Below are positions 4,762 through 60,562 of a stretch of 64,000 nucleotides of DNA, piece by piece (position 1 is the first letter of the stretch; each line of letters begins with the position of its first letter). A program made the position numbers and the translations under genes. The notes beneath the pieces are model-generated. The model searched no databases, was not told where the DNA came from, and saw only the letters and a list, made by a program, of their open reading frames with translations. The stretch is from Escherichia coli (lineage in GTDB: Bacteria > Pseudomonadota > Gammaproteobacteria > Enterobacterales > Enterobacteriaceae). The stretch lies in NCBI RefSeq assembly GCF_003790525.1, contig NZ_CP033635.1; one strand, 5' to 3'.

Positions 4762-4790
4762 AAAAGGCCCCACTTTCGTGGAGCCTTTAT
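4762..4790 (-). terminator. pflB intrinsic terminator
   Basis: On the reverse strand GGCUCCAC-GAAA-GUGGGGCC followed by UUUUU, about 40 bp after the pflB stop. Confidence 0.6.
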
Positions 4791-10317: not shown

Positions 10318-11010
10318 ATGAAGGCGTTCGATCTCCACCGTATGGCATTTGATAAAGTGCCTTTTGATTTCCTTGGCGAAGTGGCACTACGTAGTCTTTA
10401 TACCTTTGTACTGGTTTTTTTGTTCCTCAAAATGACCGGAAGACGCGGTGTGCGGCAGATGTCGCTTTTTGAAGTGTTAATCATTCTGACGCTGGGATCA
10501 GCGGCGGGAGATGTGGCGTTTTATGATGATGTGCCGATGGTCCCGGTACTTATCGTCTTTATCACTCTGGCGTTGTTATACCGCCTGGTAATGTGGTTGA
10601 TGGCGCACAGTGAAAAACTGGAAGATCTTCTGGAAGGCAAGCCGGTTGTCATTATTGAAGATGGCGAGCTGGCCTGGTCAAAACTCAACAACTCCAACAT
10701 GACGGAATTTGAGTTCTTTATGGAGCTACGATTGCGCGGTGTGGAACAGCTGGGGCAGGTACGTCTGGCGATTCTCGAAACCAACGGGCAAATCAGTGTT
10801 TATTTCTTTGAAGATGACAAGGTGAAACCGGGCTTACTTATTTTACCCAGTGACTGTACTCAGCGTTACAAAGTGGTGCCGGAGTCGGCGGACTATGCCT
10901 GCATCCGTTGCAGTGAAATCATTCATATGAACGCGGGGGAAAAACAATTATGTCCGCGCTGTGCAAATCCAGAATGGACGAAGGCAAGTCGGGCAAAACG
11001 GGTGACGTGA
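10318..11010 (+). CDS. ycaP: UPF0702/DUF421 membrane protein YcaP
   Basis: 230-aa ORF with hydrophobic N-terminal half; C-terminal CIRC...CPRC motif; divergent from ycaO. Confidence 0.88.
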   Translation: MKAFDLHRMAFDKVPFDFLGEVALRSLYTFVLVFLFLKMTGRRGVRQMSLFEVLIILTLGSAAGDVAFYDDVPMVPVLIVFITLALLYRLVMWLMAHSEKLEDLLEGKPVVIIEDGELAWSKLNNSNMTEFEFFMELRLRGVEQLGQVRLAILETNGQISVYFFEDDKVKPGLLILPSDCTQRYKVVPESADYACIRCSEIIHMNAGEKQLCPRCANPEWTKASRAKRVT

Positions 11011-11208
11011 CAGTAAAAACATCGGCTTTTTGCTAATAATCCGAGAGATTCTTTTGTGTGATGCAAGCCACATTTTTGCCCTCAACGGTTTTACTCATTG
11101 CGATGTGTGTCACTGAATGATAAAACCGATAGCCACAGGAATAATGTATTACCTGTGGTCGCAATCGATTGACCGCGGGTTAATAGCAACGCAACGTGGT
11201 GAGGGGAA

Positions 11209-12297
11209 ATGGCTCAAATCTTCAATTTTAGTTCTGGTCCGGCAATGCTACCGGCAGAGGTGCTTAAACAGGCTCAACAGGAACTGCGCGACTGGAACGG
11301 TCTTGGTACGTCGGTGATGGAAGTGAGTCACCGGGGCAAAGAGTTCATTCAGGTTGCAGAGGAAGCCGAGAAGGATTTTCGCGATCTTCTTAATGTCCCC
11401 TCCAACTACAAGGTATTGTTCTGCCATGGCGGCGGTCGCGGTCAGTTTGCTGCTGTTCCGTTGAATATTCTCGGTGATAAAACCACTGCAGATTATGTTG
11501 ATGCCGGTTACTGGGCGGCAAGTGCCATTAAAGAAGCGAAAAAATACTGCACGCCTAATGTCTTTGACGCCAAAGTGACTGTTGATGGTCTGCGCGCGGT
11601 TAAGCCAATGCGCGAATGGCAACTCTCTGATAATGCTGCTTATATGCATTATTGCCCGAATGAAACCATCGACGGTATCGCCATCGACGAAACGCCAGAC
11701 TTCGGCAAAGATGTGGTGGTCGCCGCCGACTTCTCTTCAACCATTCTTTCCCGTCCGATTGACGTCAGCCGTTATGGCGTGATTTACGCTGGCGCGCAGA
11801 AAAATATCGGCCCGGCAGGCCTGACAATCGTCATCGTTCGTGAAGATTTGCTGGGCAAAGCGAATATCGCGTGTCCGTCGATTCTGGATTATTCCATCCT
11901 CAACGATAACGGCTCCATGTTTAACACGCCGCCGACATTTGCCTGGTATCTGTCTGGTCTGGTCTTTAAATGGCTGAAAGCGAACGGCGGTGTAGCTGAA
12001 ATGGATAAAATCAATCAGCAAAAAGCAGAACTGCTGTATGGGGTGATTGATAACAGCGATTTCTACCGCAATGACGTGGCGAAAGCTAACCGTTCGCGGA
12101 TGAACGTGCCGTTCCAGTTGGCGGACAGTGCGCTTGACAAATTGTTCCTTGAAGAGTCTTTTGCTGCTGGCCTTCATGCGCTGAAAGGTCACCGTGTGGT
12201 CGGCGGAATGCGTGCGTCTATTTATAACGCCATGCCACTGGAAGGCGTTAAAGCGCTGACAGACTTCATGGTTGAGTTCGAACGCCGTCACGGCTAA
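11209..12297 (+). CDS. serC: Phosphoserine aminotransferase
   Basis: 362-aa [27 protein letters not shown]... recognised as SerC. Confidence 0.97.
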
Positions 12298-12316
12298 TGT
12301 CGAAATTTTGCTTAAT

Positions 12317-12345
12317 CCCCACAGCCAGCCTGTGGGGTTTTTATT
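12317..12345 (+). terminator. serC-aroA intercistronic hairpin with T-run (attenuator)
   Basis: CCCCACAG-CCAGC-CTGTGGGG followed by TTTTTATTT, 20 bp after the serC stop and upstream of aroA. Confidence 0.6.
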
Positions 12346-12367
12346 TCTGTTGTAGAGAGTTGAGTTC

Positions 12368-13651
12368 ATGGAATCCCTGACGTTACAACCCATCGCCCGT
12401 GTCGATGGCACTATTAATCTGCCCGGTTCCAAGAGCGTTTCTAACCGCGCTTTATTGCTGGCGGCATTAGCACATGGCAAAACAGTATTAACCAATCTGC
12501 TGGATAGCGATGATGTTCGCTATATGCTTAATGCGTTAAAGGCATTAGGGGTAAGCTATACGCTTTCAGCCGATCGTACGCGTTGCGAAATCATCGGTAA
12601 CGGCGGTCCATTACACGCAAAAAGCGCCCTGGAGTTGTTCCTCGGTAACGCCGGAACGGCAATGCGTCCGCTGGCGGCAGCTCTTTGTCTGGGTAGCAAT
12701 GATATTGTGCTGACCGGTGAACCGCGTATGAAAGAACGCCCCATTGGTCATCTGGTGGATGCGCTGCGCCTGGGCGGGGCGAAGATCACTTACCTGGAAC
12801 AAGAAAATTATCCACCATTGCGTTTACAGGGCGGCTTTACTGGCGGCAACGTTGACGTTGATGGCTCCGTTTCCAGCCAGTTCCTCACCGCACTGTTAAT
12901 GACTGCGCCTCTTGCACCGGAAGATACGGTGATTCGTATTAAAGGCGATCTGGTCTCTAAACCTTATATCGACATCACACTCAATCTGATGAAGACGTTT
13001 GGTGTTGAAATTGAAAATCAGCACTATCAACAATTTGTCGTTAAAGGCGGGCAGTCTTATCAGTCTCCGGGTACTTATTTGGTCGAAGGCGATGCATCTT
13101 CGGCTTCTTACTTCCTGGCAGCAGCAGCAATCAAAGGCGGCACTGTAAAAGTGACCGGCATTGGACGCAACAGTATGCAGGGTGATATTCGCTTTGCTGA
13201 TGTGCTGGAAAAAATGGGTGCGACCATTTGCTGGGGCGATGATTATATTTCCTGCACGCGTGGTGAACTGAACGCCATTGATATGGATATGAACCATATT
13301 CCCGATGCGGCGATGACCATTGCCACCGCGGCGTTATTTGCAAAAGGCAACACCACGCTGCGCAATATCTATAACTGGCGTGTTAAAGAGACCGATCGCC
13401 TGTTTGCGATGGCAACAGAACTGCGTAAAGTCGGTGCGGAAGTCGAAGAGGGGCACGATTTTATTCGCATTACGCCACCGGAAAAACTGAAATTTGCTGA
13501 GATCGCCACTTATAATGATCACCGGATGGCGATGTGTTTCTCGCTGGTCGCATTATCAGATACGGCAGTGACGATTCTTGATCCCAAATGCACGGCCAAA
13601 ACATTTCCGGATTATTTCGAGCAGCTGGCGCGGATTAGCCAGGCAGCCTGA
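12368..13651 (+). CDS. aroA: EPSP synthase (3-phosphoshikimate 1-carboxyvinyltransferase)
   Basis: 427-aa [38 protein letters not shown]... recognised as AroA. Confidence 0.97.
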
Positions 13652-13697
13652 ATGAACAACGTGCAATAAATAGCCAAATCTTTCTTTATCAAAACGT

Positions 13698-13710
13698 CGG
13701 CACATTGCCG
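13698..13710. repeat. Left copy of 13-bp target-site duplication flanking IS4
   Basis: CGGCACATTGCCG immediately left of the IS4 left end; identical 13-mer at 15137-15149. Confidence 0.85.
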
Positions 13711-15136
13711 TAATGCCGATCAGTTAAGGATCAGTTGACCGATCCAGTGGCTGTGTAAGAATCCGGAAACGCTCACTTGTTTCCGGATTTTTTTATGCAC
13801 ATTGGACAGGCTCTTGATCTGGTATCCCGTTACGATTCTCTGCGTAACCCACTGACTTCTCTGGGGGATTACCTCGACCCCGAACTCATCTCTCGTTGCC
13901 TTGCCGAATCAGGTACTGTAACGCTACGCAAGCGCCGTCTTCCCCTCGAAATGATGGTCTGGTGTATTGTTGGCATGGCGCTTGAGCGTAAAGAACCTCT
14001 TCACCAGATTGTGAATCGCCTGGACATCATGCTGCCGGGCAATCGCCCCTTCGTTGCCCCCAGTGCCGTTATTCAGGTCCGCCAGCGCCTGGGAAGTGAG
14101 GCTGTCCGCCGCGTGTTCACGAAAACAGCGCAGCTCTGGCATAACGCCACGCCGCATCCGCACTGGTGCGGCCTGACCCTGCTGGCCATCGATGGTGTGT
14201 TCTGGCGCACACCGGATACACCAGAGAACGATGCAGCCTTCCCCCGCCAGACACATGCCGGGAACCCGGCGCTCTACCCGCAGGTCAAAATGGTCTGCCA
14301 GATGGAACTGACCAGCCATCTGCTGACGGCTGCAGCCTTCGGCACGATGAAGAACAGCGAAAATGAGCTTGCTGAGCAACTTATAGAACAAACCGGCGAT
14401 AACACTCTGACGTTAATGGATAAAGGTTATTACTCACTGGGACTGTTAAATGCCTGGAGCCTGGCGGGAGAACACCGCCACTGGATGATACCTATCAGAA
14501 AGGGAGCGCAATATGAAGAGAGCAGAAAACTGGGTAAAGGCGATCATCTGGTGAAGCTGAAAACCAGCCCGCAGGCACGAAAAAAGTGGCCGGGACTGGG
14601 AAATGAAGTGACAGCCCGCCTGCTGACCGTGACGCGCAAAGGAAAAGTCTGCCATCTGCTGACGTCGATGACGGACGCCATGCGCTTCCCCGGAGGAGAA
14701 ATGGCGGATCTGTACAGTCATCGCTGGGAAATCGAACTGGGATACAGGGAGATAAAACAGACGATGCAACTGAGCAGGCTGACGCTGAGAAGTAAAAAAC
14801 CGGAGCTTGTGGAGCAAGAGCTGTGGGGTGTCTTACTGGCTTATAATCTGGTGAGATATCAGATGATTAAAATGGCGGAATATCTGAAAGGTTACTGGCC
14901 GAATCAACTGAGTTTCTCAGAATCATGTGGAATGGTGATGAGAATGCTGATGACATTGCAGGGCGCTTCACCGGGACGTATACCGGAGCTGATGCGCGAT
15001 CTTGCAAGTATGGGACAACTTGTGAAATTACCGACAAGAAGGGAAAGGGCCTTCCCGAGAGTGGTAAAGGAGAGGCCCTGGAAATACCCCACAGCCCCGA
15101 AAAAGAGCCAGTCAGTTGCTTAACTGACTGGCATTA
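13711..15136 (+). mobile_element. Insertion sequence IS4, complete copy
   Basis: Exactly 1426 bp; imperfect terminal inverted repeats TAATGCCGATCAGTTAAGG (left) and GCTTAACTGACTGGCATTA (right); single intact transposase ORF; flanked by a perfect 13-bp direct repeat. Confidence 0.93.
13795..15123 (+). CDS. insG: IS4 transposase
   Basis: Track ORF 13777..15123; start trimmed to [20 protein letters not shown] (442 aa), recognised as the IS4 transposase; no frameshift or internal stop. Confidence 0.93.
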
Positions 15137-15149
15137 CGGCACATTGCCG
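15137..15149. repeat. Right copy of 13-bp target-site duplication flanking IS4
   Basis: CGGCACATTGCCG immediately right of the IS4 right end, followed by GCGTTTTTTTT (the distal half of the split aroA terminator). Confidence 0.85.
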
Positions 15150-15258
15150 GCGTTTTTTTTCGGACCTTGTGAGTCATTTTGATTAATGGTAGCGTCGTTT
15201 GTCAATGTAAGTTATTGATACATAATATTTATATATGATTAATCAACGGATGATTCAC

Positions 15259-16023
15259 ATGAAGAATACTAAATTACTGCTGGCGATTGCGGCCTCTGCA
15301 GCTTTACTGACAGGGTGTCAGAATACCCACGGTATTGATACCAATATGGCTATCAGCTCAGGTTTAAATGCCTATAAAGCAGCAACGTTAAGCGATGCTG
15401 ATGCAAAAGCGATTGCCAATCAGGGCTGTGCCGAAATGGACAGCGGCAATCAAGTCGCAAGTAAATCCAGCAAGTACGGTAAACGTCTGGCAAAAATCGC
15501 CAAAGCATTGGGTAACAATATTAATGGCACGCCGGTCAACTATAAGGTTTATATGACCAGCGACGTCAACGCATGGGCGATGGCGAACGGCTGTGTTCGT
15601 GTCTACAGTGGCCTGATGGACATGATGAACGACAACGAAATTGAAGGCGTTCTGGGTCATGAACTGGGCCACGTCGCGTTGGGTCACTCGCTGGCTGAAA
15701 TGAAAGCTTCTTATGCGATCGTTGCCGCACGTGATGCGATTTCCGCTACCAGCGGTGTGGCTTCCCAGCTTTCTCGCTCACAATTAGGTGATATCGCAGA
15801 AGGCGCTATCAATGCGAAATACTCCCGCGATAAAGAGTCCGAAGCAGATGATTTCTCCTTTGATCTGTTGAAGAAACGTGGCATCAGCACCCAGGGGCTG
15901 GTTGGCAGCTTTGAAAAATTGGCCAGCCTGGATGGCGGTCGCACCCAGTCCATGTTTGACTCTCACCCACCATCAACAGAGCGTGCGCAACACATCCGTG
16001 ATCGTATCGCCTCTGGTAAGTAA
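15259..16023 (+). CDS. ycaL: M48-family metalloprotease lipoprotein YcaL
   Basis: Track ORF 15235..16023; start trimmed to MKNTKLLLAIAASAALLTGC (lipobox LTGC), 254 aa; HExxH motif HELGH. Confidence 0.9.
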   Translation: MKNTKLLLAIAASAALLTGCQNTHGIDTNMAISSGLNAYKAATLSDADAKAIANQGCAEMDSGNQVASKSSKYGKRLAKIAKALGNNINGTPVNYKVYMTSDVNAWAMANGCVRVYSGLMDMMNDNEIEGVLGHELGHVALGHSLAEMKASYAIVAARDAISATSGVASQLSRSQLGDIAEGAINAKYSRDKESEADDFSFDLLKKRGISTQGLVGSFEKLASLDGGRTQSMFDSHPPSTERAQHIRDRIASGK

Positions 16024-16195
16024 ATCATTGTCATCTTTCGGGCTGGTCTTCTGCCAGCCCGCTATAATTGCGCAATAAATCCCCATCTGAATACAGACAA
16101 AACTGGTTTTTGCACACAACGTTAACGATTTGTGGCGTCGGCGCGTATAATGCGCGCGGTTATGTTAACGGTACGCCTGTTTTAAGGAGATAAAG

Positions 16196-16879
16196 ATGAC
16201 GGCAATTGCCCCGGTTATTACCATTGATGGCCCAAGCGGTGCAGGGAAAGGCACCTTGTGTAAGGCTATGGCGGAAGCGTTGCAATGGCATCTGCTGGAC
16301 TCGGGTGCAATTTATCGCGTACTGGCACTGGCGGCATTACATCACCATGTTGATGTTGCATCGGAAGATGCGCTGGTGCCGCTGGCATCCCATCTGGATG
16401 TACGTTTTGTGTCGACCAATGGCAATCTGGAAGTGATCCTCGAAGGGGAAGATGTCAGCGGCGAAATTCGTACTCAGGAAGTGGCGAATGCTGCCTCACA
16501 AGTCGCGGCATTCCCACGCGTTCGTGAAGCATTATTGCGTCGCCAACGCGCGTTTCGCGAATTACCAGGCCTGATTGCCGATGGCCGCGACATGGGAACG
16601 GTGGTATTCCCTGATGCGCCAGTGAAAATTTTCCTTGACGCCTCCTCGGAAGAACGTGCGCATCGCCGCATGCTACAGTTGCAGGAGAAGGGCTTTAGTG
16701 TTAACTTTGAGCGCCTTTTGGCCGAGATCAAAGAACGCGACGACCGCGATCGTAACCGAGCGGTAGCGCCACTGGTTCCGGCAGCCGATGCTTTAGTGTT
16801 GGATTCCACCACCTTAAGCATTGAGCAAGTGATTGAAAAAGCGCTACAATACGCGCGCCAGAAATTGGCTCTCGCATAA
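16196..16879 (+). CDS. cmk: Cytidylate kinase
   Basis: 227-aa ORF; P-loop GPSGAGKGT; recognised as Cmk. Confidence 0.96.
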
Positions 16880-16989
16880 GCGACCGAATTTGCAGTACCC
16901 CCGTTGCAATGGAATGACAGCGGGTATGTTAAACAACCCCATCCGGCATGGAGCTAGGTGGACGTTAAATATAAACCTGAAGATTAAAC

Positions 16990-34300: not shown

Positions 34301-35779
34301 CAGGCGGAAGCGGAGCGTACCCGCGCGCGTGAAGCGTTGCGCGGACACGCAGCGCAGTTGAGTCAGTACAACCAGGTGCTGGCTTCGCTGAAAAGTTCTT
34401 ACGACACCAAAAAAGAGCTACTCAACGATCTGCAACGTGAATTGCAGGATATCGGCGTGCGTGCTGATAGCGGGGCAGAAGAGCGGGCGCGTATTCGCCG
34501 TGACGAGTTGCACGCGCAACTGAGCAATAACCGTTCACGCCGCAATCAACTGGAAAAAGCGCTTACCTTCTGCGAAGCAGAGATGGACAACCTGACCCGC
34601 AAACTGCGCAAGCTGGAGCGGGATTACTTTGAGATGCGCGAGCAGGTAGTGACCGCGAAAGCGGGCTGGTGTGCAGTCATGCGCATGGTGAAAGATAACG
34701 GTGTTGAGCGCCGCTTACACCGTCGTGAGCTGGCTTATCTCTCCGCTGATGATTTGCGTTCCATGTCGGATAAGGCGTTAGGTGCGCTGCGTCTGGCGGT
34801 GGCGGATAACGAACATCTGCGCGACGTGCTGCGGATGTCGGAAGATCCGAAACGTCCGGAGCGTAAAATTCAGTTCTTCGTGGCGGTTTATCAGCATCTG
34901 CGCGAGCGTATTCGTCAGGATATTATTCGTACCGATGATCCGGTTGAAGCTATCGAGCAGATGGAGATCGAACTTAGTCGTCTGACTGAAGAGTTAACGT
35001 CCCGCGAACAGAAACTGGCGATCAGTTCCCGCAGCGTGGCGAACATCATCCGTAAAACCATTCAGCGCGAGCAGAACCGTATCCGTATGCTCAACCAGGG
35101 CTTGCAGAACGTATCGTTCGGTCAGGTGAACAGCGTGCGCCTCAACGTGAACGTGCGTGAAACGCATGCCATGCTGCTGGATGTGCTCTCTGAACAGCAC
35201 GAGCAACATCAGGATCTGTTTAACAGCAACCGTCTGACCTTCTCGGAAGCGCTGGCGAAACTGTATCAACGTCTTAACCCGCAGATTGATATGGGGCAGC
35301 GCACGCCGCAGACCATCGGTGAAGAACTGCTGGATTACCGCAACTATCTGGAAATGGAAGTTGAGGTTAACCGTGGTTCCGATGGCTGGCTGCGCGCAGA
35401 ATCTGGCGCTCTGTCGACCGGTGAGGCGATTGGTACCGGTATGTCGATTCTGGTGATGGTGGTACAAAGCTGGGAAGATGAATCTCGCCGCCTGCGCGGT
35501 AAAGATATCTCTCCTTGCCGCCTGCTGTTCCTCGATGAAGCAGCGCGACTGGATGCTCGTTCCATCGCCACGCTGTTTGAATTGTGTGAGCGTTTGCAAA
35601 TGCAGCTCATCATCGCAGCGCCGGAAAATATCAGCCCGGAAAAAGGCACCACCTATAAACTGGTGCGTAAAGTCTTCCAGAATACCGAACACGTTCACGT
35701 AGTCGGTCTGCGTGGTTTTGCACCGCAACTCCCTGAAACGCTTCCAGGAAGTGACGAAGCGCCTTCCCAGGCGAGCTAA
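31319..35779 (+). CDS. mukB: Condensin SMC-like ATPase MukB
   Basis: 1486-aa ORF; Walker [10 protein letters not shown]; long coiled-coil middle; ATG overlaps the mukE stop (TAATG). Confidence 0.97.
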
Positions 35780-35809: not shown

Positions 35810-36039
35810 ATTTCTGAAAACTCCGTTTCTGCACTAAAAAAATGCCACATTCTGGCGCGCTTTTCTTTAAACTTCTTTACATTAGGTTATGTAAAAACGT
35901 ATCGGCGTTTATATACTGAAGATAAGCCTGATGAGTAACAGGCTTGCTCGTCATACTTTCGTGAGTATTGGCGTTGTACAGGCAAGTCGTAAAATAACAG
36001 CCTGGCTATTCAGAGTATGATAAAAACAGGGGGCAAGGG

Positions 36040-37887
36040 ATGTTGCTTAATATGATGTGTGGTCGTCGGCTGTCGGCAATCAGTTTGTGCGTGGCCGTAA
36101 CATTCGCTCCACTGTTCAATGCGCAGGCCGATGAGCCTGAAGTAATCCCTGGCGACAGCCCGGTGGCTGTCAGTGAACAGGGCGAGGCACTGCCGCAGGC
36201 GCAAGCCACGGCAATTATGGCGGGGATCCAGCCATTGCCTGAAGGTGCGGCAGAAAAAGCCCGCACGCAAATCGAATCTCAATTACCCGCAGGTTATAAG
36301 CCGGTTTATCTTAACCAGCTTCAACTGTTGTATGCCGCACGCGATATGCAACCCATGTGGGAAAACCGTGATGCTGTTAAAGCCTTCCAGCAACAGCTGG
36401 CAGAGGTGGCGATTGCCGGTTTCCAGCCGCAGTTTAATAAATGGGTAGAGTTACTGACCGATCCTGGTGTTAACGGGATGGCACGCGACGTCGTGCTCTC
36501 TGATGCGATGATGGGCTATCTCCATTTCATTGCAAATATTCCGGTCAAAGGCACTCGCTGGCTATATAGCAGTAAACCTTATGCGCTTTCAACGCCGCCG
36601 CTTTCGGTGATTAACCAATGGCAGCTGGCGCTGGATAAAGGTCAATTGCCGACGTTTGTTGCAGGTCTGGCACCGCAGCATCCGCAATATGCAGCGATGC
36701 ATGAATCGTTACTGGCCTTACTCAGTGACACCAAACCGTGGCCCCAACTGACCGGCAAAGCAACGTTGCGCCCAGGGCAGTGGAGTAACGACGTACCGGC
36801 GTTGCGCGAAATATTGCAACGCACAGGCATGCTGGACGGGGGGCCGAAAATTACTCTACCTGGCGATGACACGCCAACTGACGCGGTAGTCAGCCCATCC
36901 GCTGTTACTGTTGAAACAGCAGAAACTAAGCCGATGGACAAGCAAACGACGTCTCGTAGTAAACCTGCGCCTGCCGTTCGTGCCGCCTACGATAATGAAC
37001 TGGTGGAAGCCGTTAAACGTTTTCAGGCATGGCAAGGATTGGGAGCAGATGGCGCTATTGGCCCGGCAACGCGTGACTGGTTAAACGTAACGCCCGCCCA
37101 GCGTGCTGGCGTGTTGGCACTCAACATCCAGCGATTGCGCTTGCTGCCAACAGAGCTTTCTACCGGGATCATGGTTAACATTCCGGCCTATTCGCTGGTC
37201 TACTATCAGAACGGCAATCAGGTGCTGGATTCGCGAGTCATTGTCGGTCGCCCCGATCGCAAAACGCCGATGATGAGCAGTGCACTTAACAACGTAGTGG
37301 TAAACCCGCCGTGGAACGTACCACCAACTCTGGCACGCAAAGATATTCTGCCGAAAGTGCGCAACGATCCGGGATATCTCGAAAGCCATGGCTATACGGT
37401 GATGCGCGGCTGGAACAGCAGAGAAGCGATTGACCCATGGCAGGTTGACTGGTCTACAATCACGGCCTCGAATTTACCGTTCCGCTTCCAGCAGGCTCCA
37501 GGCCCACGGAACTCGCTGGGGCGCTATAAATTCAATATGCCGAGTTCAGAGGCCATTTATTTGCATGACACGCCGAACCACAATCTGTTCAAACGTGATA
37601 CACGCGCATTGAGCTCAGGCTGTGTGCGAGTGAATAAAGCTTCCGATCTGGCGAATATGCTGTTGCAGGATGCAGGATGGAATGACAAACGTATTTCTGA
37701 TGCGCTGAAGCAGGGCGATACGCGTTACGTCAATATTCGGCAGTCGATTCCGGTGAATCTCTACTACCTGACGGCCTTTGTTGGTGCAGATGGTCGTACC
37801 CAGTATCGTACAGATATTTACAATTATGATCTGCCTGCGCGATCCAGCTCGCAAATCGTATCGAAAGCGGAACAATTAATCAGGTAA
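36040..37887 (+). CDS. ldtD: L,D-transpeptidase LdtD (YcbB)
   Basis: 615-aa ORF with signal peptide; YkuD catalytic motif [10 protein letters not shown]...SSGCVRV. Confidence 0.93.
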
Positions 37888-59441: not shown

Positions 59442-59551
59442 AACAGGCTCGGAAAACGTTTGCGCTTTTTTTGCCACAGGTCAATTCCCTTTTGGTCCGA
59501 ACTCGCACATAATACGCCCCCGGTTTGCACACCGGGAATCCAGGAGAGTTC

Positions 59552-60562
59552 ATGTACTACCCCTTCGTTCGTAAAGCCCTTTTCCAGCTCGATCCAGAGC
59601 GCGCTCATGAGTTTACTTTTCAGCAATTACGCCGTATTACCGGAACGCCGTTTGAAGCACTGGTGCGGCAGAAAGTGCCTGCGAAACCTGTTAACTGCAT
59701 GGGCCTGACGTTTAAAAATCCGCTTGGTCTGGCAGCCGGTCTTGATAAAGACGGGGAGTGCATTGACGCGTTAGGCGCGATGGGTTTTGGATCTATCGAG
59801 ATCGGTACCGTCACGCCACGTCCACAGCCAGGTAATGACAAGCCGCGTCTCTTTCGTCTGGTAGATGCCGAAGGTTTGATCAACCGTATGGGCTTTAATA
59901 ATCTTGGCGTTGATAACCTCGTAGAGAACGTAAAAAAAGCCCATTATGATGGCGTCCTGGGTATTAACATCGGCAAAAATAAAGATACGCCGGTGGAGCA
60001 GGGTAAAGATGACTATCTGATTTGTATGGAAAAAATCTATGCTTATGCGGGATATATCGCCATCAATATTTCATCGCCGAATACCCCAGGACTACGCACA
60101 CTGCAATATGGCGAAGCGCTGGATGATCTCTTAACCGCGATTAAAAATAAGCAAAATGATTTGCAAGCGATGCACCATAAATATGTGCCGATCGCAGTGA
60201 AGATCGCGCCGGATCTTTCTGAAGAAGAATTGATCCAGGTTGCCGATAGTTTAGTTCGCCATAATATTGATGGCGTTATTGCAACCAATACCACGCTCGA
60301 TCGTTCTCTGGTTCAGGGAATGAAAAATTGTGATCAAACCGGTGGCTTAAGTGGTCGTCCGCTTCAGTTAAAAAGCACAGAAATTATTCGCCGCTTGTCA
60401 CAGGAATTAAACGGTCGCTTACCGATCATCGGTGTTGGCGGCATTGACTCGGTTATCGCTGCGCGTGAAAAGATTGCTGCGGGGGCCTCACTGGTGCAAA
60501 TTTATTCTGGTTTTATTTTTAAAGGTCCGCCGCTGATTAAAGAAATCGTTACCCATATCTAA
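59552..60562 (+). CDS. pyrD: Dihydroorotate dehydrogenase (quinone)
   Basis: Track ORF 59525..60562; start trimmed to [21 protein letters not shown] (336 aa). Confidence 0.96.

Follow-up and report, generated by a model that had tools for sequence, protein, structure and literature searches.

Recurrent insertion of IS4 into the putative serC-aroA terminator of Escherichia coli

The window analysed here, a 64-kb stretch of E. coli DNA taken as a whole, carries an insertion sequence between aroA and ycaL, where it divides a hairpin resembling an intrinsic terminator. The features of the locus, in window coordinates, are as follows:

12368-13651, plus strand: aroA coding sequence, last gene of serC-aroA, stop codon TGA at 13649-13651 (open reading frame list and SMS-3-5 annotation)
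13691-13710, plus strand: left half of the putative terminator, comprising an A-run (13691-13694), the outer 5' stem CGT (13695-13697) and the left 13-mer
13698-13710: left copy of the target-site duplication, CGGCACATTGCCG, within which lie the loop and inner stem of the putative terminator
13711-15136, plus strand: IS4, 1426 bp, with its transposase co-directional with aroA
13711-13728, plus strand: left terminal inverted repeat (IRL), 16 of 18 positions matching the right one
13735-13762, plus strand: promoter-like site in IS4, TTGACC, a 16-nt spacer and TGT-AAGAAT (consensus scan)
13757-13796, plus strand: predicted left-end hairpin of IS4 and U-run, stem 13760-13789 with 12 pairs (folding)
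13795-15123, plus strand: IS4 transposase, ATG start, 442 amino acids and stop (translation)
15097-15132, minus strand: predicted right-end hairpin of IS4, stem 15107-15132 with 11 pairs, -17.5 kcal/mol (scan and folding)
15119-15136, minus strand: right terminal inverted repeat (IRR)
15137-15149: right copy of the target-site duplication, CGGCACATTGCCG
15150-15160, plus strand: right remainder of the putative terminator, the outer 3' stem GCG (15150-15152) and T8 (15153-15160)
15259-16023, plus strand: ycaL, metallopeptidase (annotation)

The inserted DNA is a complete copy of IS4, the element that serves as type for the IS4 family of DDE transposons. Copies annotated 'IS4-like element IS4 family transposase' in several complete E. 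coli genomes match it with 100% identity. Aligned to the MG1655 copy annotated as 'insertion sequence:IS4' (insG), as a preliminary description of this DNA had proposed, it has the same length and ends and differs at 9 of 1426 nt (99.4% nucleotide identity) and 6 of 442 amino acids; we called an element IS4 when it had the reference length and termini and >95% nucleotide identity, and the window copy qualifies. Its transposase matches Nterm_IS4 (E 3.4e-32) and DDE_Tnp_1 (E 9.5e-32) in Pfam and scores 299.9 bits against NCBIfam NF033592, for which the cut-off is 115. The family is characterized by a DDE transposase encoded in one reading frame, in which the residues are spaced D(60-110)D(100-150)E and the motif Y(2)R(3)E(6)K is present, and subgroup IS4 by terminal inverted repeats that are imperfect and start with -AATR- (PMC2266710); for the target-site duplication of the subgroup, 10-13 bp was taken as the criterion. 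The window element shows the family spacing and motif, with putative catalytic residues D133, D209 and E314 (spacings 76 and 105) and YREK at Y307/R310/E314/K321, together with the ends and duplication length of the subgroup, its terminal inverted repeats being TAATGCCGATCAGTTAAG / TAATGCCAGTCAGTTAAG, both beginning TAATGCC. The coordinates, the Pfam and NCBIfam matches and the annotated copies thus agree with the preliminary description, which had recognized a complete 1426-bp IS4 with imperfect inverted ends and a 442-aa transposase.

This element and its behaviour are already known, and it is a textbook insertion sequence: of the 5,426 complete E. coli genomes that we searched, 2,686 contain it. 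The very copy in the window is already in RefSeq as locus ECSMS35_RS11215 of strain SMS-3-5: window positions 10511-16910 are identical to the reverse complement of NC_010498.1 2225340-2231739, where the RefSeq annotation gives the gene order serC, aroA, IS4, ycaL, cmk, and five places in that record match IS4. The K-12 copy (insG, MG1655 4502090-4503515) shares with it the length, the termini, the 442-aa open reading frame and the left-end hairpin, but differs in site, lying between yjgZ and nanX with a 12-bp duplication. The window copy is probably functional: its reading frame and both ends are intact. The family is active, as is seen from the repeated independent insertions in nature described below and from eight new IS4 insertions in K-12 mutation-accumulation lines (PMC5009759).

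CGGCACATTGCCG occurs twice in the 64-kb window, both times flanking IS4, and the 13-bp duplication cannot be extended, the preceding bases being T and A and the following ones T and G. Removal of IS4 and one 13-mer yields AAAACGTCGGCACATTGCCGGCGTTTTTTTT, which is predicted to fold into a 12-pair hairpin of -16.7 kcal/mol with its A·U extension (8-pair GC core, -11.7 kcal/mol), beginning 39 nt past the aroA stop codon and followed directly by U8. This reconstruction has natural counterparts. The empty site of strain CFSAN061771 is identical to it and holds a single copy of the 13-mer, and that of K-12 differs by one SNP in the stem (TTGTCG). The perfect duplication, the reconstituted hairpin with U8 and the placement of IS4 inside it had all been proposed beforehand and are borne out by these alleles. 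So is the statement that K-12 has no insertion sequence here: alignment to its aroA-ycaL region shows an empty site, and the only IS4 annotated in MG1655 is the one at insG.

The target has the marks of an intrinsic terminator, namely a GC-rich stem-loop with an immediate U-run, a position downstream of the last gene, and conservation. In a divergent class of aroA-ycaL spacers (~88% identity) the hairpin and U8 are kept base-for-base amid surroundings that differ, which argues for function. Structure, position and conservation therefore point to the serC-aroA intrinsic terminator, reportedly described by Duncan and Coggins in 1986; our literature searches for the serC-aroA terminator retrieved no paper. 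In the occupied locus this structure is split. Only a 5-pair hairpin of -5.3 kcal/mol, lacking a U-run, is kept at the left junction, so that the native terminator would be inactivated at that end; at the right junction only a 5-pair hairpin (-5.3 kcal/mol) is formed, 3 nt (GCG) before U8.

How often the site is occupied was determined in 5,426 complete E. coli genomes with a 400-nt probe spanning the junction of aroA and the left end of IS4, scoring contiguous coverage, and with a synthetic probe in which IS4 was reversed. The junction and orientation of the window are present in 67 genomes. The junction is 100% identical in at least 32 of these, whose sources are human, chicken, dog, pangolin and river water. 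A further 40, including IAI39, CE10 and NCTC86, have IS4 inverted at that nucleotide, and in 4,902 the empty-site probe is covered across the junction. The 107 occupied genomes include clonal relatives and do not represent 107 events. A chance origin is excluded by the 100% match to annotated IS4 copies together with the same junction in 67 genomes, and an assembly artefact is rejected, IS4 being at the aroA site in 107 complete genomes.

These counts bear directly on a reading that enlarges on the preliminary description, in which the insertion was a recent, one-off, strain-specific event that abolished aroA termination and let transcripts run through IS4 into ycaL-cmk-rpsA, changing their expression. 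The perfect duplication, the intact reading frame and the empty site of K-12 are all in keeping with such an event. Against a one-off insertion stand the 67 genomes that share the junction and the presence of both orientations on several haplotypes. The value of the insertion as a strain marker is accordingly lost, and of its claimed recency only part survives: the duplication has accumulated no mutations, but IS4 was in place before a whole lineage spread.

To count events we fetched nine occupied loci. In all nine the insertion point of IS4 is the same to the nucleotide and the duplication is 13 bp long, and the duplicated 13-mer is either CGGCACATTGCCG (the C allele) or CGGCACATTGTCG (the K-12-type T allele), both copies sharing one allele within each genome and each allele being seen with both orientations. 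Two alleles in two orientations require at least four independent insertions of IS4 at this nucleotide of the putative terminator. Flank comparisons suggest that the number among the nine genomes is likely to be at least seven. Occupied FDAARGOS_1285 and empty CFSAN061771 have 0 SNPs over 2.1 kb of flanks, occupied PF9285 and UMNF18 have 0 flank SNPs relative to empty K-12, and SMS-3-5 differs from other carriers of the same orientation by 31-57 flank SNPs. Homologous recombination could in principle lower the estimate of about seven, though not the minimum of four.

The same evidence weighs on a single ancient insertion that was passed on vertically and by homologous recombination, with the empty sites arising by loss. 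E. coli does recombine, and the IS4 copies at the aroA site differ from one another by as little as 1-13 nt. One event, however, cannot produce two orientations, nor would it account for the local allele, C or T, standing in both duplication copies of every genome examined, or for occupied and empty genomes with identical 2.1-kb flanks; it would also need many precise excisions, more than 90% of genomes being empty with an undisturbed single 13-mer, and it leaves aside that a target model derived from other sites predicts this nucleotide (see below). A single ancestral insertion is hence rejected on orientation and allele grounds, and we regard the scenario as a whole as highly improbable. Because both alleles and both orientations occur on flanks that match empty genomes, the presence or absence of IS4 at aroA is homoplasious. 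As the site is hit recurrently, IS4 at aroA-ycaL is unsafe as a clonal or strain marker unless orientation and flank haplotype are also checked. The aroA-ycaL site of IS4 was not found in the searchable literature.

We pooled left junctions of IS4 from a scan of species-representative genomes, a metagenome scan and other E. coli sites, obtaining 63 non-redundant left flanks, of which those from the species-representative scan are one-sided and come mostly from one Kosakonia draft genome with many IS4 copies. Aligned on the IS end, the 63 flanks are rich in A at positions -20 to -16 (frequency 0.57-0.89, with 0.89 at -18), C-rich at -14 to -9, variable in a loop region and G-rich at -4 to -1. 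An AAAA stretch lies within -23 to -15 in 42 of the 63, compared to 4% of random positions (p ~1e-43). Among targets known in full, eight of nine form a hairpin between an A run and a T run, the mean dG being -12.9 as against -4.6 for random 33-mers, and the palindromy of the targets exceeds what the position weights would give (0 of 300 column shuffles reach it). A long co-directional open reading frame ends within 150 nt upstream of 30 of 59 sites versus 17% of random positions, typically about 20-45 nt before the IS4 site.

The same architecture is seen at other E. coli targets, the 3' hairpins at bamD-raiA, tdk-adhE (convergent genes) and fieF-ogrK, and other IS4 copies have target duplications of 11-14 bp. 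The preference for terminator-shaped targets is strong, not absolute: about a third of the sites have no clean AAAA, and the target of the K-12 IS4 has the AAA and TTT arms but forms no hairpin (dG 0). The sequence of the arms may thus be more important for targeting than structure. Our 63-site pattern agrees with the AAA-N20-TTT target consensus that Mayaux et al. in 1984 and Mahillon and Chandler in 1998 reportedly gave for IS4. It agrees as well with the remark of De Palmenaer et al. on the 'spectacular' specificity in the target arms (PMC2266710).

A position-weight model was then trained with the aroA site left out and applied symmetrically to the IS-free window (~62,500 positions). It ranked the true aroA site second, at the exact nucleotide and with a 13-bp duplication. 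The top rank went to a hairpin after mukB (35846-35857), which is empty in the window. Junction probes showed that this site is occupied by IS4 in 2 + 20 other genomes, and in strain P27_L1_05.20 both the base of insertion and the 12-bp length of the duplication are as predicted. The target model therefore found a second real IS4 hotspot, mukB-ldtD, prospectively.

Recurrence could also stem mainly from selection, insertions being kept for a beneficial change in the expression of ycaL or aroA. The number of genomes occupied at aroA (107) is roughly five times that at mukB (22), although mukB has the higher model score, which would fit, as would the persistence of both orientations in sizeable lineages; the occupancy counts are, however, confounded by clonal sampling. 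Target preference alone gives the exact site and the duplication length, and both orientations occur despite the different transcriptional effects expected of them. In one study no ycaL phenotype was found (PMC11481492), that Salmonella aroA/ycaL work concerning a Tn10-derived scar, not IS4. We consider selection a very unlikely main cause, and favour recurrence through the target choice of the element itself.

What insertion would do to transcription can be judged from predicted structures at the two IS4 ends. The left-end hairpin lies 50-86 nt inside the element. Its calculated stability is -15.5 kcal/mol, or -18.8 kcal/mol with an A·U extension, and it is followed by UUUUUAUG, which runs into the ATG of the transposase; the hairpin covers the weak GGA ribosome-binding site of that gene. 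The predicted start of transcription from the promoter-like site falls at about 13769, within the 5' arm of the same hairpin. The right-end hairpin, whose folds included the IAI39 junction, is followed on the minus strand by UCUUUUUCGG, its U-run reading UCUUUUUC as RNA. A consensus terminator scan listed the right-end hairpin and not the left-end one, which was found by folding as a stem of 12-15 pairs with a U-run behind it; the omission is likely due to pairing of an upstream A-run with the U-run in the extended stem. Both inward-facing stems are stronger than the split native stem. Terminator-like sequences upstream of and inside insertion sequences have been described in a preprint as a general pattern (bioRxiv 10.1101/2025.07.22.666184).

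These structures decide our view of the read-through part of the earlier reading. In its favour, the native stem is parted from its U-run and the left junction has a 5-pair hairpin lacking one, so the claim of a split terminator stands. A transcript heading for ycaL would nevertheless have to pass the 12-pair left-end hairpin with its U-run, the 1.3 kb of IS4, and the weak residual exit hairpin with U8. Because of the left-end hairpin with its U-run and the residual exit hairpin with U8, long read-through from aroA toward ycaL seems improbable. Our expectation is that aroA transcripts stop shortly after entering IS4 and that ycaL-cmk-rpsA is hardly affected. In addition, 109 bp of native sequence is kept between IS4 and the ycaL start, including promoter-like sites at 15199-15228. 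Taken together with the recurrence, a one-off insertion that alters downstream expression is in our judgement unlikely.

We propose instead, with a probability of roughly 80%, that IS4 came to lie in the aroA terminator through its own target choice, that this terminator is hit repeatedly, and that the effect on the host is small, the hairpins at the IS4 ends replacing the terminator that was split. IS4 picks DNA shaped like a bidirectional intrinsic terminator, in which a GC-rich palindrome is set off by a few bases on either side from an A-run before it and a T-run after it. Staggered cuts 11-14 bp apart and centred on the loop then duplicate the loop and inner stem. The aroA terminator is a very good fit to such a target, and for that reason has received many independent hits at one nucleotide, in both orientations and in different E. 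coli lineages. The identity and anatomy of the element, the natural empty sites, the recurrence and the target model with its predictive power are the observations on which this part of the proposal stands.

The cost to the host would be small, no coding sequence being touched and the upstream region of ycaL being kept. The inward hairpin with U-run at each end could stop aroA transcripts some 35-86 nt after entry and so stand in for the split terminator; in the opposite orientation (40 genomes) they would meet the IRR hairpin within about 35 nt. In the window orientation the left-end hairpin overlaps the ribosome-binding site and start codon of the transposase. Transcripts from outside would contain the hairpin and be terminated or sequestered, and the element's own transcript, starting in the 5' arm, may escape. 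Termination at these hairpins, the interplay of promoter and hairpin, and the neutrality of the insertion are thus suggested by sequence and folding.

A bolder extension, which we offer tentatively and rate at somewhat less than even odds, is that IS4 is a dedicated terminator-seeking element. Its transpososome would read the architecture of a bidirectional terminator, possibly as an extruded hairpin or cruciform and not as plain sequence; its own inward terminators would make insertions near-neutral, and a simple position model would predict hotspots genome-wide, in the way that mukB was predicted here. If the hairpins at the IS4 ends do terminate, this would be a transposon that keeps harm low by seeking out terminators and supplying a substitute for the one it breaks. 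Intrinsic terminators in which a hairpin stands between an A-run and a T-run are predictable landing pads for IS4. The window itself is little affected, with no gene disrupted; what the analysis adds is the aroA terminator as a recurrent IS4 hotspot and a simple predictive description of the target.

Classical hotspots of IS4 offer the closest parallel. A single IS4 site in galT was reportedly used in both orientations (Klaer et al., 1980-81), and the pheST attenuator is a classical hotspot; our literature searches combining IS4 with pheS or attenuator gave nothing useful. Like the aroA site and the 63-site model, the classical hotspots show one nucleotide reused both ways with 11-13-bp duplications, extreme site specificity and A/T arms about 20 bp apart. 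Beyond them, the present data add the GC-palindrome component and the position at the 3' end of genes.

Other insertion sequences, namely IS1397, ISKpn1, ISPpu9 and ISRm22, target repeated extragenic palindromes (PMC1525189, PMC12288879). Like IS4 they use intergenic, hairpin-forming palindromes as targets, so that genes are avoided. They read REP/BIME repeat families by sequence, however, whereas the targets of IS4 are unrelated single-copy terminators that share architecture only. Integration into a 'safe haven', in or next to the terminator that follows a gene, is likewise the strategy of Tn7, which inserts at attTn7 in the glmS terminator region, and of bacterial group IIC introns, which insert beside intrinsic terminator hairpins. 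Tn7 differs in that TnsD, a DNA-binding protein dedicated to the task, recognizes the coding sequence of glmS, IS4 being a one-protein DDE cut-and-paste element, and IIC introns, unlike IS4, are retroelements that recognize the hairpin in single-stranded DNA. Lastly, IS10 and IS50 are protected from outside transcription, and IS200 has upstream terminators. In these elements an end structure blocks or sequesters read-through while the element's own promoter starts inside, an arrangement that the sequence of IS4 suggests it shares.

The target model, a position-weight description of IS4 insertion sites trained without the aroA site and applied to the IS-free window, placed the hairpin between mukB and ldtD first, ahead of the aroA terminator in second place, with two terminator-like candidates next in order.

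Predicted IS4 targets elsewhere in the window, by model score
35846-35857, rank 1, mukB-ldtD hairpin, AAAAAAATGC-CACATTCTGGCG-CGCTTTT
4770-4781, rank 3, terminator-like candidate, predicted only, AAAAAAGGCCC-CACTTTCGTGG-AGCCTTT
37868-37879, rank 4, terminator-like candidate, predicted only, AAAAAAGC-CCGCTTTCACAG-CGGGCTT

The top-ranked hairpin lies between the end of the mukB reading frame (1486 aa) at 35779 and the start of ldtD at 36040. It carries no IS4 in the window, and junction probes found it occupied by IS4 in 22 other E. coli genomes. These insertions sit at the nucleotide predicted by the model and carry a 12 bp duplication, both the base and the duplication having been read in strain P27_L1_05.20. 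The sole Rfam match in the window is unconnected with the IS4 finding:
59484-59557, + strand, PyrD leader (RF02373, 97.9 bits)

In roughly one in four E. coli genomes the aroA-ycaL spacer takes a divergent form, with ~88% identity. Comparison of two such loci (L012 and L013) with L010 showed that the hairpin and its U8 tract are kept exactly, and that the upstream A-run is broken (CAAAGACGT versus CAAAACGT). One of the divergent loci, from E. coli GN04530 (L013, NZ_CP147565.1), has an undamaged aroA terminator and, downstream of it, a ycaL truncated a few codons past its ATG, in place of which stand a recombinase gene and pieces of phage tail-fibre genes. This stretch looks like the remnant of an invertible tail-fibre segment.

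At the aroA junction itself, the IS4 left end (TAATGCCGAT) is complementary to the left arm of the terminator, GTCGGCA, and folding yields a new junction-spanning hairpin at 13696-13722, with seven pairs, -8.1 kcal/mol and no U-run. We regard this pairing as probably coincidental. For the window copy, the RefSeq (PGAP) annotation starts the transposase at TTG 13777, within the loop of the IS4 left-end hairpin, giving 448 aa; the annotated start of K-12 insG is an ATG, equivalent to 13795 in the window, giving 442 aa. A variant copy occupies the aroA site in E. coli AST215 (L005, NZ_AP043621.1), where IS4 measures 1525 bp, with 99 bp inserted behind its nucleotide 521 and a transposase annotated as longer to match.

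Outside E. coli genomes, the draft genome of Kosakonia oryziphila REICA_142 (L014-L029) carries the IS4 left end on at least 16 contigs, mostly no more than a few hundred bases from a contig end. Since the left-end 30-mer is identical to that of E. coli IS4 and the flank differs on each contig, these loci indicate a recent expansion of IS4 in a non-Escherichia host. The A-run and hairpin target is visible in most of the Kosakonia flanks. A left end also appears on a 265-bp contig assigned to Methylobacterium mesophilicum NBRC 15688 (L031, NZ_BPQU01000128.1), where the flank matches, base for base, that of the K-12 IS4 site between yjgZ and nanX; contamination of the assembly by an E. coli laboratory strain is the most likely explanation. 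The same K-12 junction is the most frequent among the metagenome hits (21 loci).

Four metagenome contigs (L066, L104, L113 and L116) hold a complete IS4 whose left and right flanks come from different target sites, and comparison of the flanks on these four revealed no matching duplication around the element. On L113, for example, the left flank is tdk-adhE and the right flank belongs to another site. Such contigs represent either IS4-mediated rearrangements or assembly chimeras. A further departure is seen at the bamD-raiA site (L032, L035 and L038), where the duplication, 14 bp with a single mismatch (CAGTCCTTGAGCTG / CAGCCCTTGAGCTG), exceeds the 10-13 bp usually quoted and points to an older insertion.
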